Positions 7,742 to 46,822 of a stretch of 64,000 nucleotides of DNA are shown here, piece by piece; within the stretch, counting starts at the first letter, position 1, and every line of letters begins with the position of its first letter. Under the pieces are notes generated by a model. The model saw only the letters and a program-made list of their open reading frames with translations, was not told where the DNA came from and did not search any database. The position numbers and the translations under genes were made by a program. This stretch comes from Azolla caroliniana (Eukaryota; Plantae; Polypodiophyta): NCBI GenBank assembly GCA_043228905.1, contig JBHGNT010000020.1, positions 14,074,001 through 14,138,000 on the forward strand. The letters are read 5' to 3'.

Positions 7742-8480
7742 TGTCGTGGAGAAAACCGTCCATAAGCGGAATCGGCACACCAAGGCGTGGGAACCGGTTC
7801 TTCACGCGCGCACGCTCCAAGTTGTACGTAGAAGCGAATTAGGAGGATAATCGGCAGGAACGGGCCCTAACACAAGTGGAGACAAAGACCGCGCGAACAG
7901 TCTTTTCGGTCGCGCGCGCGAGCTAAGGAACTGTACGAGTCGGCGGCGTAACTACTCGGATGCGTGAAGAGCGGAGCGGATCCCTGTCCAAAAGGGACAG
8001 GGAATAAAGCTGACAGGACGGCCCGCTCGTCGGCCTATATAAGGAGCAGGAAAGAGCTGTTGCAGGCATCTCGGGCAGAGAGGACGAAGTGCTGTCGGGC
8101 CGTTTCGGGTTCCGAGGAGGCTCGCGCTGTTTCGAGGAACGCCCAAGTGCTTCCGGCAGCACCTCCGACCTGCTCCCCCCTTTGTGCGTCGAAGCGAACA
8201 AGTATCGGCATTTGTTCGCCGGCTTGTTCGGTTGTAACCAACCTGAGCCCCATCGAGGGTTGTAGTTGTGTTAGCCATTTTTGTTAATATACATATTTAG
8301 TCGTTCGCATCTGTCTGTGTCGGTGTCTGTTCGCGTTCTCCGTGCTGAAGGGCCGTGTCCCTGTGTATCCCCGGTCCTGCGTAGCCGGTTCTCTCTCTTT
8401 CTCCTCCCTCGCTTGCTCTTTGGTTCGAGACCCCCGCGGTCCCGCCTCGTCTCCACACGCACTTGCGAAATATCTCGACA
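7742..8480 (+). repeat. 5' LTR of Gypsy C (55-bp internal deletion relative to 3' LTR)
   Basis: TGTCGTGGAG...CTCGACA; lacks the TGGACG...GTGCA segment present at 21901-21955. Confidence 0.95.
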
Positions 8481-8484
8481 TCTT

Positions 8485-8502
8485 TGGTGAACCCGACGTG
8501 AA
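8485..8502 (+). promoter_or_regulatory. Primer binding site, tRNA-Trp (also 10511-10528 + and 46801-46818 -)
   Basis: TGGTGAACCCGACGTGAA, complementary to the plant tRNA-Trp 3' end ...TTCACGTCGGGTTCACCA; 4 nt from the LTR end. Confidence 0.85.
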
Positions 8503-8524
8503 AGAGGCGGCAGAAGAGCAGAAG

Positions 8525-9706
8525 ATGAGGGGGTCGGATCTTGCAGAGGCCATGGCTTCGGCCGTGGATCGGATTGTAAACGCGCGCGAGGGCACCGGTG
8601 CCCTCGACAGAGCTATTGAGGCGGTCGTCGGCACGATCGGCCGGTTCGATGGGAAGGATGCCACGAAGTATTTGGCGTCCTACGGTGCAGAGATGCTGAT
8701 GCGGGACATTCCGGAAGAAAGGCGTCTTGCCGGATTTCCCCGAGTGGCGATGCCGAGCATCCATGCGGAGGTGCTCGAGGTGCGGGCGGAGAGCCGTACC
8801 TGGGAGGAGTTCGAAGGTCGGCTCCTAGAGAAATACGGGCTGGACGACGCGCTCCGGCTTTCGAAGCGAAGGTTCATGGAATGGGTGGAGTCCCCGGGGA
8901 AGGGAAGAAACGCGTCGGCACTCCTCCGGGAGTTCGAGGAAAACTTTGCGCGCCTTTCGGCGCTCGACCGAACCATCCTGGACACGAGCCGGGTCTTGCT
9001 GTTTGTCAAGTCGGTCGACGAGCGGGATCAGGAGCAAGTGGGCCTCTTGCTGGAAACCGAAGACGGGCTCACTACCGACTGGGCGGCTGTCAAGAAAGTC
9101 TGTGGCCGTTTCGACAAACGGCGAGAATGGGCGGATAACGGGGCAGCCGGGTCGGGCTCGGTCGCAGCAAGGAAGCTCGAACCAGCGCCACAGGTGCGAA
9201 AGGAAGAGACCCGAGAGTGGTTGGAAACCGGTTCGGCTTCGACCGGCGTAGTCAGAGGCTCAACCGGAGGAGCGGCGCTGGAGGAATTGACGAGGGCGAT
9301 AAAGGACCTCCAAATCGCGCAAGCCCGAAGGGAAGGTGGCGAACCAGCTCGTGACCGACGGCCGGCGGCAGGAAACAGGTGCATGTGGTGCGATGAAGTC
9401 GGCCACATTCGGAAGGACTGCGGCGACTTCGCGGAGGCGCTGAGGAACAGGGTGGTGTACCTGTGGGAAGGACGGGTGCATGCCAGCGACACCCGAAGGG
9501 CCCTGAGCCGAAACGACGGGCGAGGTGGTATGAAAAGGTTGATGGAAGAGGCGGCGGCCCGACACGCGGAAACCGTCCACTACTCGGCGTCGGCCGGCAT
9601 TCGAGTCGGGGGCGGCGAGGCCCGAAGGGAAAGCAAAGCCGGATTCTGGCCGACGATGCTGGAAGGCCTTGCCGGTGCAAGGCTTAAAAGGGAGGAATCG
9701 GACCGT
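8525..9706 (+). pseudogene. gag: Gypsy C gag 5' half, split by insertion of D
   Basis: Nearly identical to D gag, CMWCDEVGHIRKDC knuckle; resumes at 17041. Confidence 0.92.
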
Positions 9707-10506
9707 TGTCGTGAAGAAAACCGTCTATAGGCGGAATCAGCGCACCAAGGCGTGGGAACCGGTTCTTCACGCGCGCACGCTCCGAGTTGTACATAGAAAC
9801 GAATTGAGAGGATAATCGGCAGGAACGGGCCCTAACTCAAGTGGAGACAAAGACCGCGCGAACAGTCTTTTCGGTCGCGCGCGCGAACTGTACGAGTCGG
9901 CGGCGTAACTACGCGGATCCGTGAAAAACGGAGCGGATCCCTGTCCAAAAGGGACAGGGAATAAAGCTGACACGACGGCCTGTTCGTCGGCCTATATAAG
10001 GAGCGGGAAAGAGCTGTTGCAGGGATCGGGCGCGGAGAGGACGAAGTGCTGTCGGACCGTTTCTGGACGCTTCGCTCTCTCTGTTTCCTTCCTTCTTGAG
10101 CTCCAAAGCTTTCTGTGCAGGGTTCCGGGGAGGCTCGCGCTGTTTCGAGGAACGCCCGAGTGCTTCCGGCAGCACCTCCGACCTGCTACCCCCCCCCCAT
10201 TTCCCCGTTTGTGCGTCGAAGCGAACAGGCATCGGCATCTGTTCGCCGGCCTGTTCGGTTGCAACCAACCTGTGCCCCATCGGGGGTTGTAGTCGTGTTA
10301 GCCATTTTGTTAATACACATATTTAGTCATTCGCATCCGTCTGTGTCGGTGTCTGTTCGCGTTCTCCGTGCTGAAGGGCCGTGTCCCTGTGTATCCCCGG
10401 TCCTGCGTAGCCGGTTCTCTCTCTTTCTCCTCCCTCGCTTGCTCTTTGGTTCGAGACCCCCGCGGTCCCGCCTCTATTCCACACGCACTTGCGTAATATC
10501 TCGACA
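9707..10506 (+). repeat. 5' LTR of Gypsy D
   Basis: Direct repeat of 16237-17036, TG...CA ends, TATATAA ~9993. Confidence 0.97.
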
Positions 10507-10550
10507 TCTTTGGTGAACCCGACGTGAAAGAGGCGGCAGAAGAGCAGAAG

Positions 10551-12677
10551 ATGAGGGGGTCGGATCTCGCAGAGGCCATGGCTTCGGCCGTGGATCGGAT
10601 CGTAAACGCGCGCGAGGGTACCGGTGCCCTCGACAGAGCTATTGAGGCGGTCGTCGGCACGATCGGCCGGTTCGATGGGAGGGATGCCACGAAGTATCTG
10701 ACGTCCTACGGTGCAGAAATGTTGATGCGGGACATTCCGGAAGAAAGGCGTCTTGCCGGTTTTCCCCGAGTGGCAATGCCGAGCATCCATGCGGAGGTGC
10801 TCGAGGTGCGGGCGGAGAGCCGTACCTGGGAGGAGTTCGAAGGTCGGCTCCTAGAGAAATACGGGCTGGACGACGCGCTCCGGCTTTCGAAGCGAAGGTT
10901 CATGGAATGGGTGGAGTCCCCGGGGAAGGGAAGAAACGCGTCGGCACTCCTCCGGGAGTTCGAGGAAAACTTTGCGCGCCTTTCGGCGCTCGACCGAACC
11001 ATCCTGGACACGAGCCGGGTCTTGCTGTTTGTCAAGTCGGTCGACGAGCGGGATCGGGAGCAAGTGGGCCTCTTGCTGGAAACCGAAGACGGGCTCACTA
11101 CCGACTGGGCGGCTGTCAGGAAGGTCTGTGGCCGTTTCGACAAACGGCGAGAATGGGCGGATAACGGGGCGACTGGGTCGGGCTCGGTCGCAGCAAGGAA
11201 GCTCGAACTAGCGCCACAGGTGTGCAAGGAAGAGACCCGGGAGTGGTTGGAAACCGGTTCGGCTTCGACCGGCGTAGTCAGAGGCTCAACCGGAGGAGCG
11301 GCGCTGGAGGAATTGACGAAGGCGATAAAGGACCTCCAAATCGCGCAGGCCCGAAGGGAAGGAGGCGAACCGGCTCGTGACCGACGGCCGGCGGCAGGAA
11401 ACAGGTGCATGTGGTGCGATGAAGTCGGCCACGTTCGGAAGGACTGCGGCGACTTCGCGGAGGCGCTGAGGGACCGGGTGGTGTACCTGTTGGAAGGACG
11501 GGTGCATGCCAGCGACACCCGAAGGGCCCTGAGCCGAAACGACGGAAAGGGTGGTATGAAAAGGTTGATGGAAGAGGCGGCGGCCCGACACGCGGAAACC
11601 GTCCACTACTCGGCGTCGGCCGGCATTCGAGTCGGGGGCGGCGAGGCCCGAAAGGAAAGCAAAGCCGGATTCTGGCCGACGATGCTGGAAGGCCTTGCCG
11701 GTGCAGGGCTTGAAAGGGAGGAATCGGACCGTGCGGAGAAACGGGTACGGGAGATGACCGGGTGGAGCGACCCGGTCGAGGAAAGGACGGGCTTCGTGGA
11801 AGCCGCTTGCCGGAACTACGAGGCTCTGGTAGAAGAGAAGCGGGTGGGAAAACCCGGGACGACCGGGCCCTCACAACGATACGAGACCCGGTCCGGGCCA
11901 CGACGGGACGAAGCCGGCAGGGCCGGTACGCAAGATAAACCCCAGAAGGGCGGGTACCGTCTGGGGACGGAGATAGAAAGAACCACGGACTTACGAAAGG
12001 TCCTGGAGGAACGGATCCTCGACAGCAAGGTGGAGCTGTCGCTACGGGAGGTGCTTGGAATCGCCAAGAAGGAGTTCCACGACTCCATCGTGGACTTGGT
12101 GAAACGGAAGAGGCTGTCAACGGAGACAGAACCGGAAAGACCGGTGGAAGTGCGGACGACGCACCTAGACGACATGGCGCTGGGAGACGAGTGGGCGGAA
12201 AGCCACTATTCGAGACCGCACTGGGCCCGAGCGACCACGGAAACCCCGGTGAAGATCGGCGATGTCCAGGAACCGGTGATAGCTTTGGTGGACCACGGAT
12301 CGGAGATCAATTTGATGTCCATGGACTTCTATAAGAAGGGCAAATGGCCGATCAACACCAAGCACGGGTGGAAAATAAGGGCAGCAACGCGCGCCACCGA
12401 GGAACTGCACGGGGCCTGTCCGAATGTGCGAGTCAAGATCGGCGACGTCGAGATTGACCAGCACTTCTTCGTGCAGGAGACGTCTTCGCATCCGGTCATA
12501 CTGGGAGAGCCGTACATCACGGCGGCGCGAATGGAGACCAAGGTGCTGGACAATGGTTCGGCCTATGCGCGGGTCAAGAGCCAGGACGGCCGCCATTCGG
12601 TCCAGTTTTTGACGGTTAGGCCGAACCACGAGCGTAACCGCGACTCCCTCGGTTCCGATAACCGAGAGGATTTTTAG
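10551..12677 (+). CDS. gag: Gag-protease polyprotein of D
   Basis: CX2CX4HX4C knuckle; aspartic protease ALVDHGSEINLM...VILGEPY; first ATG after the PBS (frame also open from GTG 10524). Confidence 0.9.
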   Translation: MRGSDLAEAMASAVDRIVNAREGTGALDRAIEAVVGTIGRFDGRDATKYLTSYGAEMLMRDIPEERRLAGFPRVAMPSIHAEVLEVRAESRTWEEFEGRLLEKYGLDDALRLSKRRFMEWVESPGKGRNASALLREFEENFARLSALDRTILDTSRVLLFVKSVDERDREQVGLLLETEDGLTTDWAAVRKVCGRFDKRREWADNGATGSGSVAARKLELAPQVCKEETREWLETGSASTGVVRGSTGGAALEELTKAIKDLQIAQARREGGEPARDRRPAAGNRCMWCDEVGHVRKDCGDFAEALRDRVVYLLEGRVHASDTRRALSRNDGKGGMKRLMEEAAARHAETVHYSASAGIRVGGGEARKESKAGFWPTMLEGLAGAGLEREESDRAEKRVREMTGWSDPVEERTGFVEAACRNYEALVEEKRVGKPGTTGPSQRYETRSGPRRDEAGRAGTQDKPQKGGYRLGTEIERTTDLRKVLEERILDSKVELSLREVLGIAKKEFHDSIVDLVKRKRLSTETEPERPVEVRTTHLDDMALGDEWAESHYSRPHWARATTETPVKIGDVQEPVIALVDHGSEINLMSMDFYKKGKWPINTKHGWKIRAATRATEELHGACPNVRVKIGDVEIDQHFFVQETSSHPVILGEPYITAARMETKVLDNGSAYARVKSQDGRHSVQFLTVRPNHERNRDSLGSDNREDF

Positions 12678-15600
12678 AGAGGGCTGCCAAGGCGTGGGGC
12701 CGCGACAGTCCGGACACCCCGGGAAAACCCCACACCTGTACGATAAAACCGAAGAAACCTTGTACCATAGGTAGGGAATTTTTGTTCTCCGACAGCGGAG
12801 CGTGTGCGATGGTCGGCATCGCCGGCCGAGAGAAAACAAAGACGGAGGCGAGACTTCGAGCGTGCGGAGTTCTCGGCCCGGACGAGGAAATCAACGGAGC
12901 CGTGGAGGCGGTCTCATTCGACGACACCTTGGGAATGCTGGGAAAGGTAGTCGAAGAAGGCCTTAACGACAACCGGACGATACCGGTGTGTTCCGAGGAG
13001 ATGTACGAAGTCATCACGGACTTCGGTCGAGGGCTCGAGTCAGTTCGGACGGCCCACGTAAACACCAAGTACAAGACTGTGGACCATAAGGTAAGGCCAG
13101 TAGCGGCACCCTTACCGGAGGACAGCGCGTCGAGAATCAAAGGGGTTGCATCAGACCCTAGTCTACGAGATCCGGCCTGCATAGGGCACACCTTCACTAA
13201 CGAGACGCTCCGAGAGCTCAAAATCGGTGGGGGCGGGTTCCTACTGCCGGCGGAGGAAGACCGGTTTCGGAGAATGCTCGGAAGGCACGGGAAAGCCTTC
13301 GCATTCTCGCCGGAGGAAATCGGGTGCGTTGACCCGACGATCGTGGAGCCGATGGTGATATTCACGGTACCGCATGTACCATGGAATCTCAAGCCAATCC
13401 CGGTTCCGAGAGCTCACATCCCGAAGTTGATGGAGCTGCTGAGGCAGAAAGTTGATATGGGAATTCTCGAGCCGTCGAGCGCCCCATATTCGAATCGATG
13501 GTTTACCGTACCGAAGAAAAACGGTTCGCTGCGCTTCATCCAGGACCTGCAGCCGGTCAATCGAGTGACCATTCGGAACGCAGGAATCGGACCGACCATA
13601 GACGAGTTCGCGGAGGCCTTCGCCGGAAGGTCAATTTACTCGGTCGGGGATCTATACTCAGGGTACGACCAGTTCCAGCTGGCCGTGGAGAGCAGAGACC
13701 TTACGACGATGCGAACTCCCCTCGGCCTAGTTCGGATGTGTACACTGCCGCAAGGAGGGACCAACTCGGTGGCCCACATGGTGAATGCGATGAACAAGGT
13801 TCTGAGGGACTGTGTCCCGGACATTACCATGCCGTTTCTGGACGACATCCCGATCAAGGGATGCCCGGTGGAAGAAAAGGACGAGACGATCGGGCCGGAC
13901 GGATGCCGGCGATTCGTGGCGACGCACGTCGACGACTGCGAGAAGGTGCTGCAAAGGCTAGAGGATGCGAGACTCACCTTCTCCGGGGAGAAGTCGGCCT
14001 TCGGGCAGTCAGAAATCATGGTGGTCGGACACCTGTGCGGACCATATGGCCGGAAACCGTCTCCGGCGAAGGTAGAAGCCATCTCCGCGATGAAGCCCGA
14101 CTGCAGCTCGGTCACGGAAGTACGGAGATTCCTGGGGGCATGCGCGTTCTACCACATATGGATCCCGCATTACGCACACGTCGCGGAGCCACTGTACGGG
14201 TTGCTGAAAAAGGGGCGAAGGTTCGAATGGCTAGACAAGCACGCGGAATCGGTCCGGAAGCTGAAAGAGGCCCTTGCAGCGGCACCGGCACTCCGGAAGG
14301 CGGTTTACGGGAAGGGTACCCCGGTATTCATAACGGTGGATACCAGTCCGACCGGGATCGGATGGGTCGTGAACCAGGAAGACGAGGACGGCAATCGGTT
14401 TCCGATCCGATTCGGCGCGAAAGTCCTCAGTGAACGGCAGCGAGGGTACGCCCAGGTTAAACGCGAACTCTGGGGTATTGTTTCGGCGGTTAAGGCCGAC
14501 AAAGACTACCTGATAGGGACGGAAGTGATCATCGAGACGGATTGCCTGCCGATTCTCGGTATGGTTTCCGGATGCGCGACTCCGGACCTGGCGATGCTCA
14601 GGTGGATAGCGTACATCAAGTCCCTGGACCCGGAAATACGACACATTTCCGGGAAAGACAACGCCATGGCCGACATGCTTTCGAGGGCGAGGTACGACGA
14701 CGAGGGCGGCATGGTTTCGGAAGACGAAGAAGTCGGCGTGGATTTCTTCGAGGCGGCATACATAACGACCGACGGGATGAGCACTCCGGCGCTTAACGAG
14801 TTCGACGCGAGCAAGTACGACGGGGAATGGCTGCAGATCGGCGGGTTTTTGAAGACGATGACGCCCGATGCGTCATGGACGAAGGACGAGGCCAACCGGA
14901 TCCGGAAGAAAGCATATCGATTCTTTCTCCGAGATGGGCATCTATGGAAGCACCCGAAGAAGAGGGACGGCGTCCCGCTCCGAGTGGTGGCGATGAAGGA
15001 AGAGCAGGAGGAGCTACTGGCGGCCTACCACGACAGCCCTTGGGCTGGACACCGTGGAACGTGGGCGACGTTTGAGAAGCTGAAGGGAAAGTACTGGTGG
15101 CCGGGATTGTACCGGGACGTGCATCGGTTCGTGTCAACTTGCGAGAGTTGTCAGATGCACTCGATAGTCCGACACCGGGACGGGCTTCACCCTACGTACC
15201 CTCCGACTATCCACTTCAAATGGATGGTAGATCTGGTGACGATGCCGATGGGGGTAGGACAGATGCGGTATCTGGTCCTAGCGCGGGAAGACCTGACGAA
15301 CCAGGTGGAAGGCCGAGCCCTTCAGAACAAGACGACCGCGGCCGTGTGTCGGTTCCTAGTCGAGGACGTGATATGCCGGTACGGGTGCGTCGGGAAGATC
15401 GTGGCTGACCGAGGGGAGTTGGACGCCGAAGAGGCCGCGGAGCTGTTCGACCGGCTTGGAGTCAAGCTCTCGCTCACCACTGCGTACAATCCGGAGGCGA
15501 ATGGAAAGGTGGAGCGCGGACACGGACCGATCATCAAGGCGTTGATTCGGGCATGCGGAGGCCAAGTCGGTAACTGGCCGCGGCTGCTACCTTATGCTTT

Positions 15601-16165
15601 GTGGGCAGACCGGACCACGCACAGTTCGGTAACCGGGTACATGCCGACGGAGCTCATGTTCGGCCAGAAGCCGATCATGCCGGTTGAACGGACGATCTCC
15701 TCGTGGGCAGCGGTCGACTGGAGGGACGAGATGAGCCGGGAGGAGTTGTTGGTCGCACGTATACAACAGCTCGAGCGGAGGCCGGAGGACGTGGCACTGG
15801 CTACGGAGAAGCTCCGGGTGGCGAGGACAAAGAACAAAGCCCGGTTCGACCGAACGCACCGGCTACGACCGAAGAAAATCGAAGAAGGTGACTGGGTGCT
15901 CGTCTACGACAGCAGCCTCGACAACCAGCACCGAGCCACACGGAAGTTCGCACGAAGGTGGTTCGGGCCTTACGTGGTACGGAGTGCCAATGACAACGGG
16001 ACATATCACCTGGCGGAACTTGACGGCACGAGAATGGCGATACCGGTTGCAGGGAAGCGGATCAAAGCGTTCAAGAAGCGACACGACGACGAGCCAGACC
16101 CGGCTCTCCTGGTCGGCAATGACGAACGATCCGAAAATGAAGAAGAACCGACGGGCGAGGAATGA
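12668..16165 (+). CDS. pol: Pol (RT-RNase H-integrase) of D, probably expressed by -1 frameshift
   Basis: DLYSGYDQ, LPQGGTNS, FLDD, VDTS, HHCC zinc finger, DDE core, GPY/F motif, no chromodomain; frame open from GGATTTT at 12668. Confidence 0.92.
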   Translation, partial: GFLERAAKAWGRDSPDTPGKPHTCTIKPKKPCTIGREFLFSDSGACAMVGIAGREKTKTEARLRACGVLGPDEEINGAVEAVSFDDTLGMLGKVVEEGLNDNRTIPVCSEEMYEVITDFGRGLESVRTAHVNTKYKTVDHKVRPVAAPLPEDSASRIKGVASDPSLRDPACIGHTFTNETLRELKIGGGGFLLPAEEDRFRRMLGRHGKAFAFSPEEIGCVDPTIVEPMVIFTVPHVPWNLKPIPVPRAHIPKLMELLRQKVDMGILEPSSAPYSNRWFTVPKKNGSLRFIQDLQPVNRVTIRNAGIGPTIDEFAEAFAGRSIYSVGDLYSGYDQFQLAVESRDLTTMRTPLGLVRMCTLPQGGTNSVAHMVNAMNKVLRDCVPDITMPFLDDIPIKGCPVEEKDETIGPDGCRRFVATHVDDCEKVLQRLEDARLTFSGEKSAFGQSEIMVVGHLCGPYGRKPSPAKVEAISAMKPDCSSVTEVRRFLGACAFYHIWIPHYAHVAEPLYGLLKKGRRFEWLDKHAESVRKLKEALAAAPALRKAVYGKGTPVFITVDTSPTGIGWVVNQEDEDGNRFPIRFGAKVLSERQRGYAQVKRELWGIVSAVKADKDYLIGTEVIIETDCLPILGMVSGCATPDLAMLRWIAYIKSLDPEIRHISGKDNAMADMLSRARYDDEGGMVSEDEEVGVDFFEAAYITTDGMSTPALNEFDASKYDGEWLQIGGFLKTMTPDASWTKDEANRIRKKAYRFFLRDGHLWKHPKKRDGVPLRVVAMKEEQEELLAAYHDSPWAGHRGTWATFEKLKGKYWWPGLYRDVHRFVSTCESCQMHSIVRHRDGLHPTYPPTIHFKWMVDLVTMPMGVGQMRYLVLAREDLTNQVEGRALQNKTTAAVCRFLVEDVICRYGCVGKIVADRGELDAEEAAELFDRLGVKLSLTTAYNPEANGKVERGHGPIIKALIRACGGQVGNWPRLLPYALWADRTTHSSVTGYMPTELMFGQKPIMPVERTISSWAAVDWRDEMSREELLVARIQQLERRPEDVALATEKLRVARTKNKARFDRTHRLRPKKIEEGDWVLVYDSSLDNQHRATRKFARRWFGPYVVRSANDNGTYHLAELDGTRMAIPVAGKRIKAFKKRHDDEPDPALLVGNDERSENEEEPTGEE

Positions 16166-16236
16166 AGACGGGCCGGTTTTCTCCGTCCCAACTCTCTTGG
16201 CGCATACCGGAGGATGCGCGGTTAGGTGGGGGCGGA

Positions 16237-17036
16237 TGTCGTGAAGAAAACCGTCTATAGGCGGAATCGGCGCACCAAGGCGTGGGAACCGGTTCTTCAC
16301 GCGCGCACGCTCCGAGTTGTACATAGAAACGAATTGAGAGGATAATCGGCAGGAACGGGCCCTAACTCAAGTGGAGACAAAGACCGCGCGAACAGTCTTT
16401 TCGGTCGCGCGCGCGAACTGTACGAGTCGGCGGCGTAACTACGCGGATCCGTGAAAAACGGAGCGGATCCCTGTCCAAAAGGGACAGGGAATAAAGCTGA
16501 CACGACGGCCTGTTCGTCGGCCTATATAAGGAGCGGGAAAGAGCTGTTGCAGGGATCGGGCGCGGAGAGGACGAAGTGCTGTCGGACCGTTTCTGGACGC
16601 TTCGCTCTCTCTGTTTCCTTCCTTCTTGAGCTCCAAAGCTTTCTGTGCAGGGTTCCGGGGAGGCTCGCGCTGTTTCGAGGAACGCCCGAGTGCTTCCGGC
16701 AGCACCTCCGACCTGCTACCCCCCCCCCATTTCCCCGTTTGTGCGTCGAAGCGAACAGGCATCGGCATCTGTTCGCCGGCCTGTTCGGTTGCAACCAACC
16801 TGTGCCCCATCGGGGGTTGTAGTCGTGTTAGCCATTTTGTTAATACACATATTTAGTCATTCGCATCCGTCTGTGTCGGTGTCTGTTCGCGTTCTCCGTG
16901 CTGAAGGGCCGTGTCCCTGTGTATCCCCGGTCCTGCGTAGCCGGTTCTCTCTCTTTCTCCTCCCTCGCTTGCTCTTTGGTTCGAGACCCCCGCGGTCCCG
17001 CCTCTATTCCACACGCACTTGCGTAATATCTCGACA
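16237..17036 (+). repeat. 3' LTR of Gypsy D
   Basis: Preceded by PPT, followed by TSD CCGT. Confidence 0.97.
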
Positions 17037-17040
17037 CCGT

Positions 17041-17985
17041 GCGGAGAAACGGGTACGGGAGATGACCGGGTGGAGCGACCCGGTCGAGGAAAAGACGGGC
17101 TTCGTGGAAGCTGCTTGCCAGAACTACGAGGCTCTGGTAGAAGAGAAGCGGGTGGGGAAACCCGGGACGACCGGGCCCTCACAACGATACGAGACCCGGT
17201 CCGGCCCACGACGGGACGAAGCCGGCGGGGCCGGTACGCAAGATAAACCCCAGAAGGGCGGGTACCGTCTGGGGACGGAGATAGAAAGGACCACGGACTT
17301 ACGAAAGGTCCTAGAGGAACGGATCCTCGACAGCAAGGTGGAGCTGTCGTTACGAGAGGTGTTGGGAATCGCCAAGAAGGAGTTCCATGACTCCATCGTG
17401 GACTTGGTGAAACGGAAGAGGCTGTCAACGGAGACAGAACAGGAGAGACCGGTGGAAGTGCGGACGACGCACCTAGACGACATGGCGCTGGGAGACGAGT
17501 GGGCGGAAAGCCACTATTCGAGACCACACAGGGCCCGAGCGACCACGGAAACCCCGGTGAAGATCGGCGATGTCCAGGAACCGGTGATAGCTTTGGTGGA
17601 CCACGGATCGGAGATCAATTTGATGTCCATGGACTTCTATAAGAAGGGCAAATTGCCGATCAACACCAAGCACGGGTGGAAAATAAGGGCAGCAACGCGC
17701 GCCATCGAGGAACTGCACGGGGCCTGTCCGAATGTGCGAGTCAAGATCGGCGACGTCGAGATTGACCAACACTTCTTCGTGCAGGAGACGTCTTCGCATC
17801 CGGTCATACTGGGAGAGCCGTACATCACGGCGGCGCGAATGGAGACCAAAGTGCTGGACAATGGTTCGGCCTACGCGAGGGTCAAAAGCCAAGACAGGCG
17901 CCATTCGGTCCAGTTTCTGACGGTACGGCCGAACCACGAACGTAACCGCGATTCCCTCGGTTCCGAAAACCGAGAGGATTTTTAG
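17041..17985 (+). pseudogene. gag: Gypsy C gag-protease 3' half
   Basis: AEKRVREMTGW... continues 9706; DHG protease; ends REDF*. Confidence 0.92.
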
Positions 17986-20900
17986 AGAGGACTGCCAAGG
18001 CGTGGGGCCGCGACAGTCCGGATGCTCCGGGAAAACCCCACATCTGTACGATAAAACCGTGTACAATAGGTAGGGAATTTTGCTTCTCCGACAGCGGAGC
18101 ATGTACGATGGTCGGCATCGCCGGCCGAGAGAAAACAAAGACGGAGGGGAGACTTCGAGCGTGCGGAGTTCTCGGCCCTGACGAAGAAATCAACGGAGCC
18201 GTGGAGGCAGTCTCCTTCGACGACACCTTGGGAATGCTGGGAAAGGTAGTCGAAGAAGACCTTAACGAAGACCGGACGATACCGGTATGTTCCGAAGAAA
18301 TGTACGAAGTCATCGCGGACTTTGGTCGGGGGCTCGAGTCGGATCGGACGGCCCGAGTAAGCACCAAGTACAAGACTGTGGACCGGAAGGTAAGGCCAGT
18401 CGCGGTACCCTTACCGGAGGGCAGCGAGTCGCGAATCAAAGGGGTTGCATCGGACCCCAGCTTACGAGATCCGGCCTGCATAGGACACACCTTCACCAAC
18501 GAGATGCTCCGGGAGCTCAAAATCGGTGGGGGCGGGTTCCTGCTACCGGCGGAGGAAGACCGGTTTCGGAGAATGCTCGGAAGGCACGGGAAAGCCTTCG
18601 CATTCTCGCCGGAGGAAATCGGGTGCGTGGACCCGACGATCGTAGAGCCGATGGTGATATTCACGGTACCGCATGTACCGTGGAATCTCAAGCCAATTTC
18701 GGTTCCGAGAGCTCACATCCCGAAGTTGATGGAGCTGTTGAAGCAGAAAGTTGATATGGGCATTCTCGAGCCGTCGAGCGCCCCGTATTCAAACCGATGG
18801 TTTACCGTACCAAAGAAAAACGGATCATTGCGCTTCATTCAGGACCTGCAGCCGGTCAATAGAGTGACCATTCGGAACGCAGGGATCGGACCGACCATAG
18901 ACGAGTTCGCGGAGGCCTTCGCCGGAAGGTCGATTTACTCGGTCGGTGATCTATACTCAGGGTACGACCAGTTCCAGCTAGCCGTGGAGAGCAGAGACAT
19001 TACGACGATGCGAACTCCCCTCGGCCTAGTGCGGATGTGTACGCTGCCGCAAGGAGGGACCAACTCGGTGGCCCACATGGTGAATGCGATGAACAAGGTG
19101 CTGAGGGACTGCATCCCGGACATCACCATGCCGTTTCTAGACGACATCCCGATCAAGGGATGCCCGGTAGAAGAGAAGGACGAGACGATCGGGCCGGACG
19201 GATGCCGGTGATTCGTGATGACGCACATCGACGACTGCGAGAAGGTGCTGCAAAGGCTAGAGGATGCGAGGCTCACCTTCTCGGGGGAGAAATCAGCCTT
19301 CGGGCAGTCGGAAATCATGGTGGTCGGACACTTATGTGGGCCATATGGCCGGAAACCGTCTCCGGCAAAGGTAGAAGCCATCTCCGCGATGAAGCCCGAC
19401 TGCAGCTCGGTCACGGAAGTACGAAGATTCCTGGGGGCATGCGCATTCTACCACATATGGATCCCGCATTACGCCCACGTTGCGGAGCCGCTATACAGAT
19501 TATTGAAGAAAGGGCGAAGATTCGAATGGCTAGACAAGCACACGGAGTCGGTCCGGAAGCTGAAGGAGGCTCTTTCGGCAGCACCGGCGCTCCGAAAGGC
19601 CGTCTACAGGAAGGGCACCCCAGTGTACATAACGGTTGACACGAGTCCGACCGGAATCGGGTGGGTCGTCAACCAAGAAGACGAGGAGGGCAATCGGTTT
19701 CCGATCCGATTCGGCGCGAAGGTCCTCAGTGAGCGGCAGCGAGGATACGCCCAGGTTAAACGCGAACTCTGGGGTATCGTTTCGGCGGTGAAGGCCGACA
19801 AGGACTATCTGATCGGGACAGAGGTAATCATAGAGACGGATTGCATGCCGATTCTCGGCATGGTTTCCGGATGCGCGACGCCGGACCTGGCAATGCTCAG
19901 GTGGATAGCGTACATCAAGTCCCTGGACCCGGGAATACGACACATTTCCGGGAAAGACAACGCCATGGCCGACATGCTTTCAAGGGCGAGATTCGATGAC
20001 GAGGGCGGCATGGTTTCGGAGGACGAAGAGGTCGGCGTGGACTTCTTCGAGACTGCGTATGTGACAACCGACGGAACAAGCACTCCGGCGCTTAACGACT
20101 TCGACGCGAGCAAGTACGACGGGGAGTGGCTGCAGATCGGTGGGTTTTTGAAGACAATGACGCCCGATGCGTCATGGACGAAGGACGAGGCCAACCGGAT
20201 CCAGAAGAAAGCGTACCCATTCTTTCTCCGGGATGGATACTTGTGGAAGCACCCGAAGAAGAGGAACGGCGTCCCGCTCCGGGTGGTGGCAATGAAGGAA
20301 GATCAGGAGGAGCTGCTAGCGGCCTACCACGACAGCCCTTGGGCTGGACACCGTGGAACATGGGCTACGTTTGAGAAACTGAAGGGGAAGTATTGGTGGC
20401 CGGGGCAGTACCAGGACGTGCATCGGTTCGTGACAACTTGCGAGAGCTGTCAGATGCACTCCATAGTCCGACATCGAGACGAGCTTCACCCTACGTACCC
20501 TCCGGCCATCCATTTCAAATGGATGGTAGATCTGGTAACGATGCCAATGGGAGTAGGACAGATGCGGTACCTGGTCCTAGCGCGGGAGGATCTGACGAAC
20601 CAGGTGGAAGGCCGGGCCCTTCCGAACAAAACGACCGCGGCCGTATGTCGGTTCCTAATCGAGGACGTGATATGCCGGTACGGGTGCGTCGGGAAGATCG
20701 TGGCTGACCGAGGGGAGTTGGACGCCGAAGAAGCCGCGGAGCTGTTGGACCGGCTGGGAGTCAAGCTCTCGCTCACCACTGCGTACAATCCGGAGGCGAA
20801 TGGAAAGGTGGAGCGCGGACACGGGCCGATTGTCAAGGCGCTGGTTCGAGCATGCGGAGGCCGAGTCGGTAACTGGCCGCGGCTGCTACCTTATGCTTTG

Positions 20901-21464
20901 TGGGCGGACCGGACTACGCACAGTTCGGTAACCGGGTACATGCCGACGGAGCTCATCTTCGGCCAGAAGCCGATCATGCCGATGGAACGGACGATCTCCT
21001 CATGGGCAACGGTCGATTGGAGGGACGAGATGAGCCGGGAGGAGTTGTTGGCCGCGCGTATACGACAACTCGAGCGGAGACCGGAGGACGTGGAACTGGC
21101 TGCGGAGAAGCTCCGGGTGGCGAGGACAAAGATCAAAGCCAGGTTCGACCGAACGCACCGGCTCCGACCGAAGAAAATCGAAGAAGGTGACTGGGTGCTC
21201 GTCTACGACAGCAGCCTCGACAACCAGCACCGAGCCACACGGAAGTTTGCACGAAGGTGGTTCGGGCCTTACGTGGTACGGAGCGCCAATGACAACGGGA
21301 CATATCACCTGGCGGAACTCGACGGCACGAGAGTGGCGATACCGGTTGTAGGGAAGCGGATCAAAGCGTTCAAGAAGCGACACGACGACGAGCCAGACCC
21401 GGCTCTCCTAGTCAGGAGTGACGAACGATCCGAAAACGAGGAAGAACCGACGGGCGAGGAATGA
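17976..21464 (+). pseudogene. pol: Gypsy C pol with one premature stop
   Basis: ORFs 18108-19211 and 19215-21464 in the same frame; CGA>TGA at 19209 relative to D. Confidence 0.93.
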
Positions 21465-21535
21465 AGACGGGCCGGTTTTCTCCGTCCCAACTCTCTTGGC
21501 GCATACCGGAGGATGCGCGGTTAGGTGGGGGCGGA

Positions 21536-22329
21536 TGTCGTGGAGAAAACCGTCCATAAGCGGAATCGGCACACCAAGGCGTGGGAACCGGTTCTTCACG
21601 CGCGCACGCTCCAAGTTGTACGTAGAAGCGAATTAGGAGGATAATCGGCAGGAACGGGCCCTAACACAAGTGGAGACAAAGACCGCGCGAACAGTCTTTT
21701 CGGTCGCGCGCGCGAGCTAAGGAACTGTACGAGTCGGCGGCGTAACTACGCGGATGCGTGAAGAGCGGAGCGGATCCCTGTCCAAAAGGGACAGGGAATA
21801 AAGCTGACAGGACGGCCCGCTCGTCGGCCTATATAAGGAGCAGGAAAGAGCTGTTGCAGGCATCTCGGGCAGAGAGGACGAAGTGCTGTCGGGCCGTTTC
21901 TGGACGCTTCTCTCTTTGTTTCCTTCCTTCTTGAGCTCCATAGCTTTTCTGTGCAGGGTTCCGAGGAGGCTCGCGCTGTTTCGAGGAACGCTCGAGTGCT
22001 TCCGGCAGCACCTCCGACCTGCTCCCCCCTTTGTGCGTCGAAGCGAACAAGTATCGGCATCTGTTCGCCAGCTTGTTCGGTTGTAACCAACCTGAGCCCC
22101 ATCGAGGGTTGTAGTCGTGTTAGCCATTTTTGTTAATATACATATTTAGTCGTTCGCATCTGTCTGTGTCGGTGTCTGTTCGCGTTCTCCGTGCTGAAGG
22201 GCCGTGTCCCTGTGTATCCCCGGTCCTGCGTAGCCGGTTCTCTCTCTTTCTCCTCCCTCGCTTGCTCTTTGGTTCGAGACCCCCGCGGTCCCGCCTCGTC
22301 TCCACACGCACTTGCGAAATATCTCGACA
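21536..22329 (+). repeat. 3' LTR of Gypsy C
   Basis: Preceded by PPT; repeat of 7742-8480. Confidence 0.96.
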
Positions 22330-30677: not shown

Positions 30678-31070
30678 AGGCTGCTCTCACTTCGCATGAA
30701 ACATGAGCAACAACATAAAACTGTTTGCCCTAAGTCATATTTATACATATATGACTTTCGGGCTATTTACAAATATAGCCTCAAGGGCCCTTGGCAAACA
30801 TATTCACAAATATGTCCCCGCATCCGGATCTCTCTCTCCGGGTACATACGTCATCCGGCTCCGTAACCGGGGTCTTCAGCATCCGGCTTTGTAACCGGGG
30901 TCTTCAGCATCCGGCTCCGTAGCCGGGGTCTTCGTCATCCGGCTCCGTAACCGGGGTCTTCAGCATCCGGCTCCGTAGCCGGGGTCTTCGTCATCCGGCT
31001 CCGTAATCGCAACCGGGCTTGCCGTCATTCATCTCCGGACATCCCATCCGGAGGGACCGAAATCCCAACA
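30384..31070 (-). repeat. 3' LTR of Copia G
   Basis: Direct repeat of 35189-35875. Confidence 0.97.
30852..31006. repeat. 28-bp tandem array in U3 of the Copia G LTR (also 35657-35811)
   Basis: CATCCGGCTCCGTA(A/G)CCGGGGTCTTC(AG/GT) about 5.5 times. Confidence 0.93.
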
Positions 31071-31080
31071 AACTCCCCCT

Positions 31081-34000
31081 TCACTTCGGCATGGGATGTC
31101 TCTCCAATCCGATCCTCTTCCGGCATGTTTCCAGCTTGTCGGGTGTGAGCACCTTGGTCAGCATATCCGACCCGTTCTCGTCCGTGCGGACCTTCGTCAG
31201 TACGAGCTCTTTATCTTCTATCCTTTCCCGGATCCAGTGGTATCTACGCTGGATGTGTTTCGTCCGGGAATGGTAGGCCGCGTTCTTCGCAAGGTGGATG
31301 GCACTCTGACTATCGCAGTAGAGTCGGTACTCCTCCTGCCGGATACCGAGCTCTCTAATGAAGTCCTTCATCCATATTATTTCCTTGCCGGCTTCAACAA
31401 CCGCCATGTACTCCGCCTCCGTGGTTGATAACGCAACCGTCTTCTGCAGCCTCGACTGCCATGAAACAGCTCCCCCTGCATACGTCATCACATACCCTGA
31501 TGTGGACCGGCTGGTATCTGCATCAGCCGACATATCCGAATCGGTGAAGCCGTCGAGTTCGGGCTTACCAGAGCCGAATCGGAGGCACACGTTTGCCGTG
31601 CCCTTCAGGTATCGGAGTATCCACTTGACCGCGTTCCAGTGCTCTTTGCCGGAATTGCTCATGTACCGGCTCACCACTCCGACTGCGTATCCTATGTCCG
31701 GTCTTGTACACACCATTGCGTACATCAAGCTTCCGACGGCAGAGGCATATGGTACTTTCATCATGTCCTCCTTCTCAGCCTTTGTCTTGGGGCTTTGCTT
31801 GCTGGACAACTTGCAGTTTGCCGGGAGGGTTGACCCGACCGGTCTTGCTTCCGACATGTTGAACCGGTGAAGCACCTTTGTCACGTACTTCTCCTGTGAC
31901 AGCCACAACTGCTTCTTCTTCCGGTTCCGGATGATGTGCATCCCTAGTATTTGCCTCGCCGGACCCAGGTCCTTCATTGAGAAGGTTCGGTGAAGTGCCT
32001 TCTTCAGCATCCGTATCTTGACCTGGTCCCGTCCGACGATCAACATGTCGTCCACGTACAGGAGGAGTATTAGAGAGTCTCCTCCTTCGAACTTCTTCAC
32101 AAACACGCAGTGATCAGACTGCGTTTTGTGGTACCCTTCGTCGGTCATGAAGGAGTCGAACTTCCGGTACCATTGCCGGGGAGCCTGCTTCAGTCCGTAA
32201 AGGCTCTTCTTCAACCGGCATACCAGGTGCTCCTTCCCTTTCTTCTCGAATCCTTCCGGTTGCTGCATGTAGATCTCTTCTTCGAGGTCACCGTGAAGGA
32301 ATGCCGTCTTCACGTCCATCTGTTCTACCTCGAGGTCCATACTTGCCGCTATGCTCAGCACCGTCCGGATGGAGGTCATCTTCACTACCGGGGCAAATAT
32401 CTCGTCGAAGTCGACGCCCTTCTTCTGCTGAAACCCCTTCACCACGATCCTGGCTTTGTATCTCGGGGGGTTTCCGGCATCTCCCGGTTTCAGCTTGAAC
32501 ACCCACTTGTTACGGAGTGCCCGTTTTCCTTTCGGCAACTCCACAAGTTCATATGTGTGGTTCTCATGCAGGGAATCCATCTCCTCCTGCATGGCACTTA
32601 ACCACCTGTGGCTATGGGTGTCATACTTCGCTTCTTCAAAACTCTCCGGCTCCCCCTCGTCGGTTAGCAGCACGTGCTCTGGTTCCGGAAATCTCCGGGG
32701 GGCCCTTCTCTCTCTTAGAGGATATCTCCGTTCCGGAGCTTCGGTAACCGGTTCTTCCGATTCTTCTTCTTCATCCGAATCCATTTCGGGATCGGGGCCG
32801 GTTCCGGTATCATTTTCGTCTTCTTCGGCCGGTTCTGTTTCTTCACCGTCTTCGGCCGGATCCTCGAGTGCTAACCGGTCCCTTGCCGGTCGGGACTGCT
32901 CCTCGTAGAGTTGATCCTCACCGGTCGACTTTGAGCTCTTCATCTTCTTCTCCGACTCCCAGTCGGCGAGTGTCTTGTCCTCCATGAAGATGATGTCTCG
33001 ACTCCTGAATATCTTCTTGTCAACCGGGTCCCATACTCGGTAGCCGAACTCGTCGTCGCCGTAACCGAGGAATATGCATGGCCGGGTCTTTGGATCTAGC
33101 TTTCCTCTCCGGTCCTTTGCCACATGCACGTATGCGAGACACCCGAACACCTTCAGATGCCGGTAGGATACTTCCCTACCGGTCCACACTCTCTGCGGCG
33201 TGTCTCCGTCCAAAGGTACTGAGGGTGATCTGTTTATCACATATGTCGCCGTCGACATTGCCTCAGCCCAAAATCCCTTGGGTAATTTCGCATGTGCCAG
33301 CATACTCCGGACCCTCTCCATTATGGTCCGGTTCATCCTCTCGGCCAGCCCGTTCAGTTCCGACGTCTTCGGCACAGTAAACTCGAGCCGGATTCCCTTC
33401 GAGCGACAGTACTCCTGGAACTGCCCCCGGTATTCCCCTCCGTTATCCGCTCGTATCGCTTTCAGCTTCTTGCCGGATTCCCTTTCCACTCTCGCGTGAA
33501 GTTCTTTGAAGACGGACAATACTTGGTCCTTTGTCTTCAACGGTGCCGTCCACAGCTTCCGGCTATGGTCATCAATGAATGTTACGAAGTACTGGGCTCC
33601 GCCATGTGACTTCGTTTCTACCTGACACACATCGGTGTGCACCAACTCCAATGGTGCGCTACGTCTCGTCGGTGGCCTTGAGTGGAAGGAGGTCCGGTTT
33701 TGCTTACCGGCCAGACAGTCGGTGCACTTCTCCAGGTGCACATGCTTCACTGGAATAAGGTTGTCTTCTGCAAGCCTCTTCATCCCCTTCTCACTCATAT
33801 GGCACAGTCTCTTGTGCCACAGCTCACCGGCAGTGTCGGCTGCCACATTCAGCTCTTCCGGACATAACCGGGCATTCATCAGGTACAGTGTGTTGTCTTT
33901 CCGGGCCCGAGCCACTATCAGGCTCCCTTTGCTGAACTTCATGACACCGTTCCGGATGCTACCCGTGTAGCCTTCATCATCTAGCCTCCCGGCCGAAATC

Positions 34001-35157
34001 AGATTCAATCGAACCTCCGGAACGTGTCGAACATCCTTCAGCAGCATCTTGCATCCGGTTGATGTCATCAGCCACACGTCTCCTATGCCGGCAATCCGGC
34101 ATGTACCTTCGTTTCCCATCCGGACACAGCCGTGCTCACCGGCTGTGTAGGATGAGAAGTATTTCTTCTCCGGGGTCAAGTGGAACGACGCTCCGGAATC
34201 GACCACCCAGGTCATCTCTACACCGGCAAGGTTCAGCTCCCTCTCTTCGGTAATGAGCATTATCTCTTCTTCACTTGCCGCGAGTGCCGTCGTTCCTTTC
34301 CGGTCCTGACCTCGCCGATCCGGACATCTCCGGTCCGTGGCTCCCCGGTATGCACCGTTTCTCTCCGGTGACTTCTTCGAATCGGTGTCGTCGGCTCCGT
34401 TGTCCTTTCGGTAATGCCGACAATTCTTCCGGAAGTGCCCCGGCTTCCCACAGTGGAAGCATGTGGGCCTTCCTCTTGACTGCGACCAGGTCCCCGACTT
34501 CTCCCGTCTTTGCGGACTCCGGTTCCATTGTCTTCCCCGATCCGATTCGGTAAGCAGCGCCTTCGGATCGGAAACCTGTTCCTTATCCCTCCGACGCGCT
34601 TCTTCGTTCAAAATGCTTGTCTTTACCGTTTGTAGAGACAAGTTATCTTCGGTGCAGGAGGTGCTGAGAGTCACCACCAAGTTCTCCCAGCTGTCCGGCA
34701 ATGTACACATCAGGATGATGGCTTGCATTGCATCCTCCAACGGGAACTTGATCGCCGCAAGCTGGTTCACGAATCCCATGAACGTGCTTACGTGTTCCAC
34801 CATATTCTCGCCGTCCCGGTACTTGAGGTTCACTATCTTCCTCATCAGGGAGGTCCGGTTCAACGCATTCTTCCTCTCGTAGAGGCCCGACAGCTTCTTC
34901 CACATCTCATATGCGTTGGTGTCGTTCGCCACATGTTGTAGGACGCTTACATCGACATATTGCCGGATCGTCGCTACGGCTTTCCGGTTCAGGAGCTTCC
35001 ACTCCGACTCTATTACTCCCTTGGGTATCTCGGCATTGTCGATCGGTTCGTACAGGTCTCGGACGATGAGAAGGTCTTCCATCTTTATCTTCCAATCGGC
35101 GTAGTTCTGTGAGTTCAACACCATCATGCCCGGAGGCCCACTACCGCCGCCTTCCAT
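31081..35157 (-). CDS. gag-pol: Gag-Pol polyprotein of Copia G (1358 aa from first ATG after PBS)
   Basis: CFHCGKPGHFRKNC, WVVDSGASFH, LWHKRLCH, ADNGGEY, LYVDDM, KHIQRRYHWIRE; no stops. Confidence 0.96.
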   Translation of the reverse strand: MEGGGSGPPGMMVLNSQNYADWKIKMEDLLIVRDLYEPIDNAEIPKGVIESEWKLLNRKAVATIRQYVDVSVLQHVANDTNAYEMWKKLSGLYERKNALNRTSLMRKIVNLKYRDGENMVEHVSTFMGFVNQLAAIKFPLEDAMQAIILMCTLPDSWENLVVTLSTSCTEDNLSLQTVKTSILNEEARRRDKEQVSDPKALLTESDRGRQWNRSPQRREKSGTWSQSRGRPTCFHCGKPGHFRKNCRHYRKDNGADDTDSKKSPERNGAYRGATDRRCPDRRGQDRKGTTALAASEEEIMLITEERELNLAGVEMTWVVDSGASFHLTPEKKYFSSYTAGEHGCVRMGNEGTCRIAGIGDVWLMTSTGCKMLLKDVRHVPEVRLNLISAGRLDDEGYTGSIRNGVMKFSKGSLIVARARKDNTLYLMNARLCPEELNVAADTAGELWHKRLCHMSEKGMKRLAEDNLIPVKHVHLEKCTDCLAGKQNRTSFHSRPPTRRSAPLELVHTDVCQVETKSHGGAQYFVTFIDDHSRKLWTAPLKTKDQVLSVFKELHARVERESGKKLKAIRADNGGEYRGQFQEYCRSKGIRLEFTVPKTSELNGLAERMNRTIMERVRSMLAHAKLPKGFWAEAMSTATYVINRSPSVPLDGDTPQRVWTGREVSYRHLKVFGCLAYVHVAKDRRGKLDPKTRPCIFLGYGDDEFGYRVWDPVDKKIFRSRDIIFMEDKTLADWESEKKMKSSKSTGEDQLYEEQSRPARDRLALEDPAEDGEETEPAEEDENDTGTGPDPEMDSDEEEESEEPVTEAPERRYPLRERRAPRRFPEPEHVLLTDEGEPESFEEAKYDTHSHRWLSAMQEEMDSLHENHTYELVELPKGKRALRNKWVFKLKPGDAGNPPRYKARIVVKGFQQKKGVDFDEIFAPVVKMTSIRTVLSIAASMDLEVEQMDVKTAFLHGDLEEEIYMQQPEGFEKKGKEHLVCRLKKSLYGLKQAPRQWYRKFDSFMTDEGYHKTQSDHCVFVKKFEGGDSLILLLYVDDMLIVGRDQVKIRMLKKALHRTFSMKDLGPARQILGMHIIRNRKKKQLWLSQEKYVTKVLHRFNMSEARPVGSTLPANCKLSSKQSPKTKAEKEDMMKVPYASAVGSLMYAMVCTRPDIGYAVGVVSRYMSNSGKEHWNAVKWILRYLKGTANVCLRFGSGKPELDGFTDSDMSADADTSRSTSGYVMTYAGGAVSWQSRLQKTVALSTTEAEYMAVVEAGKEIIWMKDFIRELGIRQEEYRLYCDSQSAIHLAKNAAYHSRTKHIQRRYHWIRERIEDKELVLTKVRTDENGSDMLTKVLTPDKLETCRKRIGLERHPMPK

Positions 35158-35188
35158 TTTCTGTGTTACCGTCGCTCTGATACCAATT

Positions 35189-35451
35189 TGTTGTAAAACA
35201 GTGCTCGGCCACAACCGAGGAATAGGATTACCTCACAGAAAACAGGAAATACAAAATGCACGAAGACAATAGAGAGGAGGGTACACAGGGTGTTTACGTG
35301 GAAACCCTAAATGGGAAAAACCACGGGAGTCCTCAGACTCCAACTATCAGTATGAACAGAGATGTACAATGGTGAAGCTACAAGGCAACAACCTTGAGTT
35401 CACTGTCTTCGCCACAGGCGGCGGTAATACACAGAGGCAACGACCTCTTCG

Positions 35452-40312: not shown

Positions 40313-41100
40313 TGTCGAGTTTTTACGCAAGTGCGTGTGGAAACGAGGCGGGACCGCGGGGGTCTCGAACCAAAGAGCAAGCGAGGGAGGAGAAAGAGAG
40401 AGAACCGGCTACGCAGGACCGGGAATACACAGGGACACGGCCCTTCAGCACGGAGAACGCGAACGAACACCAACACAGACAGATGCGAATGACTAAATAT
40501 ATATATCAAGAATGGCTAACACGACTACAACCCTCGATGGGGCACAGGTTGGTTACAACCGAGCAGGCCGGCGAACAGATGCCGATGCCTGTTCGCTTCG
40601 ACGCACAAGGGGTAGCCGGTCGGAGGTGCTGCCGGAAGCACTCGGGCGTTCCTCGAAACAGCGCAAGCCTCCTCGGAACCCTGCACAGAAAGCTATGGAG
40701 CTCAAGAAGGAAGGAGACAGAGAGAGAAGCGTCCAGAAACGGTCCGGCAGCACTTCGTCCTCTCTGCGCGAGATGCCTGCAACAGCTCTTTCCCCGCTCT
40801 TATATAGTCCGACGAGCAGGCCGTCATGTCAGCTTTATTCCCTGTCCCTTTCGAACAGGGATCCGCTCCGTTCTTCACGCATCCGCGTAGTTACGCCGCC
40901 GACTCGTGCCGTCCTTTAGCTCGCGCGCGCGCTCGAAAGGACTGTTCGCGCGGTCTTTGTCTCCACTTGTGTTAGGGCCCGTTCCCGCCGACTATCCTCC
41001 TAATTCGCTTCTATGTACAACTCGGAGCGTGCGCGCGTGAAGAACCGGTTCCCACGCCTTGGTGCGCCGATTCCGCCTATGGACGGTTTTCTTCACGACA
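40313..41100 (-). repeat. 3' LTR of Gypsy H
   Basis: Repeat of 46823-47610; PPT complement at 41101-41117. Confidence 0.96.
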
Positions 41101-46778: not shown

Positions 46779-46822
46779 CTTCTGCTCTTCTGCCGCCTCT
46801 TTCACGTCGGGTTCACCAATGA

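Follow-up and report, generated by a model that had tools for sequence, protein, structure and literature searches.

The window analysed here, a 64,000-nucleotide (nt) stretch of Azolla caroliniana DNA (contig JBHGNT010000020.1, positions 14,074,001 to 14,138,000), holds three related long terminal repeat (LTR) retrotransposons, D, C and H, which their sequence features place in the Phygy lineage of Ty3/gypsy (NCGN target duplications and a tRNA-Trp primer site). In the full-length element D, Gag and the protease (PR) share the first open reading frame (ORF1), and the reverse transcriptase (RT), RNase H (RH) and integrase (INT) follow in an overlapping −1 frame. Programmed −1 ribosomal frameshifting (PRF) at a G_GAU_UUU heptamer, with a predicted H-type pseudoknot downstream, very probably joins Gag-PR to RT-RH-INT. 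The aligned sequences on which this reading is based themselves show two ORFs with the protease in the first, a heptamer that is conserved, a constant spacing and compensatory changes in both stems. We also lean, with far less assurance, towards a wider proposal: that a pseudoknot-stimulated −1 shift occurs clade-wide in the Phygy elements of seed-free plants, and that one subfamily, having lost a single base (G_GAU_UUU plus 6 nt to AG_GUU_UUU plus 5 nt), is still transposing by an RNA-structure-stimulated −2 shift.

The proposed frameshift cassette in the window

The original prediction had placed a −1 frameshift cassette with an H-type pseudoknot after the protease, and the comparative evidence given below supports it. 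The heptamer followed directly by TAG, claimed for all three elements, was found at 12668 in D, 17976 in C and 44661 (minus strand) in H, the combination GGATTTTTAG occurring three times in the window. The −1 frame does run without a stop into RT: in D it spans 1167 codons (12662 to 16165) and covers RT, RNase H and integrase, and comparison of D with C and of D with H showed, as claimed, a single 9-nt indel in the linker. The proposed pairings are likewise present, with GG(A/G)CTG starting 6 nt past the heptamer and pairing with CAGTCC (12706–12711), and GTGGGG complementary to CCCCAC. The arrangement thus has the features of a canonical −1 PRF site, namely an X_XXY_YYZ-type heptamer (the listed G_GA variant) in the upstream frame, a predicted structure within 5–8 nt downstream (6-nt spacer, covarying stems), and an overlapping −1 ORF that is open from the site and lacks a start codon of its own.

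Under the proposed mechanism, a ribosome whose P site contains GAU and whose A site contains UUU would be held at stem 1 or the pseudoknot. Most ribosomes would read on to the stop, releasing abundant Gag-PR; in a minority the two tRNAs would re-pair one base back (GAU to GGA, UUU to UUU), giving a scarce Gag-PR-linker-RT-RH-INT product with the junction ...E-D-F-L-E-R.... Protease would then be made 1:1 with Gag, and RT and integrase would be rationed. The adjacent stop may assist the shift, as in pea enation mosaic virus (PEMV; PMC4737148), but it is not universal among the Phygy relatives.

Conservation of the heptamer and the frame

A metagenome scan yielded 80 loci, of which the 57 carrying both protease and RT were kept and the 23 missing one or both were dropped; together with the three window copies these gave 60 junctions, reduced to 34 by dereplication at 90% identity. 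The last Phe codon ahead of the gag stop served as the anchor of the junctions; L071 and L112, which have broken gag frames, were placed by hand. The longest open frame past the junction was −1 in 55 of the 57 loci and +1 in two.

The 34 junctions comprised GGATTTT (24), GGATTTC (3), GGGTTTT (3), GGTTTTT (2), GAATTTT (1) and AAATTTT (1), although the TTY part of these heptamers is partly true by definition because of the Phe anchor, which weighs against reading it as independent support. The first base is the wobble position of 12 different amino acids, and was G in 33 of 34 junctions against a background of 28% (the exception being A_AAT_TTT). Near invariance across so many amino acids indicates that the constraint acts on the RNA rather than the protein. 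Where the heptamer encodes Asp the codon was GAT in 27 of 27 cases, compared with 200 GAT to 108 GAC in the background, and parsimony required 0–3 changes per column within the heptamer versus 8–15 in the nine bases upstream. A stop lay directly after the heptamer in 26 of 34 junctions (TAG 12, TAA 8, TGA 6), and in the others it was one or five codons further on or mutated. The adjoining TAG of the original prediction is one form of a common feature, but it is not required, and TAA and TGA also occur. Among Gag-PR homologues, 92 of 120 terminated at [DGN]F-stop or five codons later.

In the genome, the full cassette pattern had 1,379 exact matches, and the reversed control pattern none; none of the 150 protease copies scored had an open frame of more than 1,040 codons around it. 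The heptamer-plus-stop pattern without the stem was uninformative (446 matches versus 665 for its control), and the 55 pattern matches in viral contigs included none that was confirmed.

Conservation of the predicted pseudoknot

Both stems covaried across the family, a check named with the original prediction, and shared one geometry. Stem 1 starts 6 nt past the heptamer, with the same end offset in 32 of 34 relatives and one 3 nt later in the other two, and stem 2 (4–9 bp) joins the stem-1 loop to sequence 6–23 nt downstream. Stem 1 is 8–11 bp in most relatives and has six contiguous pairs in D, so that the pairing first noticed in the window is real but represents a weakened form of the family stem. 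Helix 1 was paired at 96.5%, and compensatory changes were seen in both stems over the 34 relatives. The covariation score was 0.394, against 0.224 +/- 0.014 for shuffled alignments (0/500 as high) and at most 0.163 when the pairing was slid. Arms from the same element paired better than swapped arms in both stem 1 (7.71 versus 6.36 of 8) and stem 2 (score 15.1 versus 11.7), with 0/10,000 permutations each; since the relatives share ancestry and come mostly from one accession series, these counts express consistency rather than probabilities. The geometry passed at 34/34 true sites and at 451 of 20,031 other start positions (2.3%), with thresholds chosen post hoc.

Several points weigh against the frameshift reading or limit it. 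The cassettes of D, C and H, folded singly with a program that cannot form pseudoknots, were no better than their shuffles (z −0.18, −0.76 and −0.23, respectively), and the minimum-energy fold of D consists of stem 2 and a CCGG/CCGG hairpin, which is preferred over stem 1. With folds at the shuffle level and a competing hairpin, the window alone would not prove the pseudoknot. The stems also code in the pol frame, and alignment A2 misaligns L108 and does not have stem 2 in a constant register (at one register it is 65% paired). L108 is in addition a weak −1 case, with a stop after 30 codons. Within the window, gag of C is interrupted by D and its pol has an in-frame stop at 19209–19211. Finally, a single metagenome protein, P0114, has protease, linker and RT fused in one frame, and may be a copy altered by mutation or a relative that naturally has a single ORF.

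The CCGG/CCGG hairpin (12708–12723) is present in D, C and H and shares bases with the 3' arm of stem 1; it could compete with the pseudoknot there, and it was not seen in distant relatives. A third stem within loop 3 is likewise visible by eye in D, C and H and not in more distant relatives. An Rfam search over 12500–12900 gave no match at E <= 1.

Other routes to pol

The linker bears directly on whether pol could be reached without a frameshift. Across 33 relatives, the interval from the heptamer to an RT-proximal motif contained no stop in the pol frame and 301 and 405 stops in the other two; its length ranged from 356 to 464 nt with the frame always kept, and the ratio of nonsynonymous to synonymous divergence (dN/dS) was 0.17–0.41 in the four pairs computed of eight planned, indicating purifying selection. 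The first pol-frame Met lay anywhere from codon 2 to codon 110, and the frame was open upstream of it in every relative. A stop-free, frame-keeping linker and a wandering first Met argue against both an intron and a dedicated start.

One such route would be splicing of an Ogre-like intron between protease and RT, with the motif present by coincidence or serving to package the RNA. Ogre has its split at this position and is spliced (PMC6317226), and gene models of Riccia and Physcomitrium fuse PR to the linker, the longer homologues (14/14) all being fused Riccia models, which counts against a frameshift. However, the joins in these models vary in place, as would be expected if the predictor had bridged a frameshift, the two ORFs overlap, and the linker, which codes under purifying selection, resembles neither an intron nor the Ogre arrangement. 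No common donor-like site was found near the junction in 10 relatives inspected. Splice joints at or after the junction were absent from 385, 223 and 796 poly(A) reads (∼12% of each run), a thin test given a junction depth of ∼7–16 per run and reads that derive from related copies and both strands. We consider splicing very unlikely. As a separate observation, poly(A) reads were present in both orientations over 11450–12760 (the 3' half of gag and the protease), which suggests antisense or read-through transcription of family copies.

Separate production of pol, through a subgenomic RNA or initiation at a linker AUG, has a precedent in foamy viruses, where splicing is noted (PMC3185560), and an in-frame ATG is present at 12809. 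A pol start at this ATG, named from the outset as the competing case, is disfavoured by the shifting position of the first Met and by the open frame upstream of it. Read starts showed no pile-up among the poly(A) reads, at low depth, and separate expression would leave the heptamer unexplained; this route appears highly improbable.

The T5 run in D could in principle add a base through RNA polymerase slippage, and pseudoknots can promote stop readthrough (PMC3458567). Readthrough would nevertheless remain in frame 0 rather than enter the pol frame, the T run is reduced to T3–T4 in GGATTTC and the non-stop variants, and the RNA reads had no insertion at the site (low depth). Either process is an extremely remote explanation for the conserved −1 arrangement.

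A subfamily with pol in the +1/−2 frame

In the two loci with pol in the +1 frame, L094 (2836–2908) and L135 (2498–2570), ORF1 ends in Q-V-F-(D/Y)-stop with AG_GTT_TTT, and pol is open for 1151 and 1098 codons, respectively. This site equals the ancestral-type G_GAT_TTT minus one base, and stem 1 starts after 5 nt. The pseudoknot is kept (stem 1 10–11 bp, stem 2 8 bp). The Azolla genome itself had 98 matches to the subfamily pattern versus one for the control, so the +1 frame is not an assembly slip. Among 20 of these copies, partly selected for long open frames, 10 had LTRs at least 99% identical, five had pol open for 1151 codons and three had both ORFs open; young copies were flanked by NCGN. 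By these sequence criteria the subfamily has recently transposed. Its members form a single clade (support 100) that falls within the −1 elements, and the L094 and L135 lineages are separated by a synonymous divergence (dS) of ∼1–1.8 with dN/dS of 0.05–0.07 in gag-PR, RT-RH and integrase.

We think it reasonably likely that the pol of this subfamily is reached by −2 frameshifting, and thus that a natural switch from −1 to −2 has occurred. A −2 slip would bring the number of codons before stem 1 back to the same value, and in vitro a spacer 1–2 nt below the −1 optimum favours −2 slipping (PMC3458567). Only two lineages, the L094 type and L135, are known, which counts against this reading. Possible for the subfamily, but less favoured, is a +1 shift at UUU_(G/U), or else reinitiation, after termination, at an AUG that lies shortly before the gag stop. 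Both lineages have a pol-frame ATG at most 12 codons upstream, against a background of only 10 of 32 −1-type relatives with one in that frame; re-pairing of UUU to UUU would be perfect in the L135 type, and the P-site re-pairing of a −2 slip (GUU to AGG) is poor. On the other side, the ATGs of the L094 type and L135 are at different positions, the pseudoknot has persisted across the divergence given above, most of the copies in the Azolla genome read UUU_G, which is poor for +1 re-pairing, and a P-site UUU would leave only 2 nt between the A site and the start of stem 1. RNA reads on a +1-frame element numbered 19, 7 and 3 and left the junction uncovered.

Two successive −1 shifts were considered for the subfamily and rejected, as the upstream T_GAT_TTT runs at once into a −1-frame stop. 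A protein from Calypogeia fissa, P0309, ends in ...EKVFY-stop and is closest to L103/L104 (57%), with 45% to the +1-frame clade; it could represent an independent origin of GUU_UUU, although it is known as protein only.

Comparison with known recoding systems

The Rous sarcoma virus (RSV) slippery site is A_AAU_UUA, which differs from G_GAU_UUU. The layout of avian alpharetroviruses, including RSV and myeloblastosis-associated virus (MAV), is nonetheless similar: Gag and protease share a frame and are made in equal amounts (PMC3185560), and a single −1 shift of ∼5%, with a pseudoknot, takes place where gag ends (PMC5009743). The RSV protease is described in PMC5009743 as encoded by pol, in conflict with PMC3185560. 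These viruses differ in bearing env, whereas the Phygy elements have a ∼130-codon linker before RT and a D-H-G protease. In mouse mammary tumour virus (MMTV) and human T-lymphotropic virus (HTLV), the pro-pol frameshift is the second of two, so that the protease itself is rationed, unlike in the Phygy layout.

Among plant elements, Ogre and Retand (Tat lineage) have their ORFs split at the same place as the Phygy elements, but through a partly spliced intron in Ogre and mostly a single in-frame stop in Retand, and by the account in PMC6317226 neither has overlapping frames. The in-frame layout, with protease proposed to be made at Gag stoichiometry, is less unprecedented than first suggested in view of the avian case (PMC3185560) and the Ogre/Retand split.

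The heptamer had been compared with that of a dianthovirus, and G_GA-type sites are indeed listed for umbraviruses and dianthoviruses (PMC5009743). Red clover necrotic mosaic virus (RCNMV) and PEMV RNA2 share the G_GAU_UUU-type heptamer, with a stop directly after the site or 3 nt later and any stop codon tolerated (PMC5009743, PMC4737148). In these viruses the shift is stimulated by a bulged stem-loop that pairs over a long range with the 3' end, whereas the Phygy cassette is predicted to be a compact, local H-type pseudoknot.

The subfamily site AG_GUU_UUU resembles the −2/−1 site GG_GUU_UUU in nsp2 of the porcine reproductive and respiratory syndrome arterivirus (PRRSV), with pol in the +1/−2 frame; the common subfamily type also has a −1-frame stop directly after the site (PMC4937337). 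The PRRSV shift depends on a protein complex that sits on a C-rich motif, where RNA structure is absent (PMC4937337), whereas the subfamily keeps its predicted pseudoknot. The C-rich CCCANCUCC motif found 11 nt downstream in the arterivirus, with its protein trans-activation, has no counterpart, stem 1 occupying that place. By analogy, the subfamily site would work like the arterivirus −2 site but is not a member of that type.

A literature search found neither the −1 cassette nor the subfamily signal described for Phygy, although subscription papers, Repbase notes, two REXdb supplements and bioRxiv supplements could hold a mention. Plant LTR retrotransposons are mostly described as single-ORF and as not using recoding (PMC5580714), and a 2003 survey, as reported in PMC5009743, had only +1-frame cases in plants. 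The Phygy ORF organisation is given as "not determined" in PMC6317226, an entry that would be filled by this lineage, which is high in copy number and carries a covarying −1 signal of the classical kind. With the frame split, the introns that gene predictors seem to invent at this place would be explained, and the Phygy relatives offer natural variants of the pseudoknot by the dozen. Of greater importance than the main cassette is the subfamily. Natural eukaryotic −2 cases named in one review depend on protein (arterivirus) or come from a virus (Trichomonas virus 1); with a matched natural −1/−2 pair that shares a pseudoknot family, the spacer-length (mRNA tension) model would become directly testable, and the transition on a homologous pseudoknot would, if true, constitute a direct evolutionary test of it.

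Protease fold and assignment of the host elements

The C-terminal domain of ORF1 is modelled as having the retroviral protease fold (retropepsin, peptidase A2). The match to Pfam Asp_protease_2 fell short of the cut-off (E 0.0078), with 19 of 25 relatives matching, and that to the Ty3 protease had E 0.0012. The structure model had a predicted local distance difference test (pLDDT) score of 78.6, and the top Foldseek matches were Ddi1 and retroviral proteases (best E 4.6e-7). The retropepsin catalytic motif is D-(T/S)-G. In these elements it is D-H-G in 111 of 120 homologues, and D-S-G occurs in 4 of 25 aligned relatives. The avian retroviral protease, which shares its frame with Gag, is low in specific activity (PMC3185560), and we speculate that the D-H-G motif could reflect a similar tuning.

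The Phygy lineage is a non-chromovirus Ty3/gypsy group defined by an NCGN 4-bp target site duplication (TSD) and a tRNA-Trp primer binding site (PBS) (PMC6317226). All three elements have duplications of this form (Table 1), and the PBS of D is complementary to the 3' end of tRNA-Trp, with 5 of 5 genomic matches checked being tRNA-Trp genes. Domains follow the order PR-RT-RH-INT, with one RNase H region and no chromodomain in a Pfam scan (E 0.001). At 7,330 bp, D is slightly shorter than the Phygy range of 7,656–9,968 bp, which derives from one species (PMC6317226); H is 7,298 bp and the +1-frame subfamily ∼7.9–8.0 kb. A short, largely coding element is a further shared trait, and no frameshift signal forms part of the available PMC6317226 account. 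The protease is 64–71% identical to close homologues among Physcomitrium patens gene models, and homologues from named plants, as proteins only, came from Physcomitrium, Riccia, Adiantum and Calypogeia.

Table 1. Positions of the elements, reading frames and cassette features in the window.
Feature	Position	Strand	Remarks
Element D, full-length Phygy-type Ty3/gypsy LTR retrotransposon	9707–17036	+	TSD CCGT at 9703–9706 and 17037–17040
5' LTR of D	9707–10506	+	
PBS of D	10511–10528	+	Complementary to tRNA-Trp(CCA) 3' end
ORF1 of D (Gag and protease in one frame)	10551–12677	+	708 aa, ending ...NREDF-stop; zinc knuckle from 11406, DUF4100
Retropepsin-fold aspartic protease (modelled)	12246–12506	+	Catalytic Asp codon 12291–12293; unusual D-H-G motif (12291–12299)
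ORF2 of D (−1 frame)	12662–16165	+	∼130-codon linker, RT (FLDD at 13835), RNase H, integrase; no protease
Slippery heptamer G_GAT_TTT of D	12668–12674	+	
6-nt spacer	12675–12680	+	Includes ORF1 stop TAG 12675–12677
Predicted pseudoknot stem 1, 5' arm	12681–12688	+	6 contiguous pairs in D, then C-A mismatch
Predicted stem 2, 5' arm (GTGGGG)	12694–12699	+	
Predicted stem 1, 3' arm	12704–12711	+	
Predicted stem 2, 3' arm (CCCCAC)	12728–12733	+	Preceded by 16-nt loop 3
3' LTR of D	16237–17036	+	
Element C, host of D insertion	7742–22329	+	TSD CCGT
Cassette of C	17976–18041	+	
Element H	40313–47610	−	TSD GCGT; LTRs identical at 787/788 bases
Cassette of H	44596–44661	−	

The LTRs of D are identical at 799 of 800 bases. 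D is inserted within gag of its relative C at CCGT, a 4-mer identical to the TSD of C itself. Matches to the tRNA-Trp 3' end cluster elsewhere in the genome at G000:C8:17796786-17823371 (∼1.2 kb spacing) and G000:C16:4989495-5105657, possibly as tandem tRNA-Trp arrays or as repeats that include the end of the tRNA. The window also contains a copia element with an ORF at 31081–35232, open for 1383 codons, and LTRs that are 99.85% identical, within which a 28-bp tandem repeat lies at 30821–31033.

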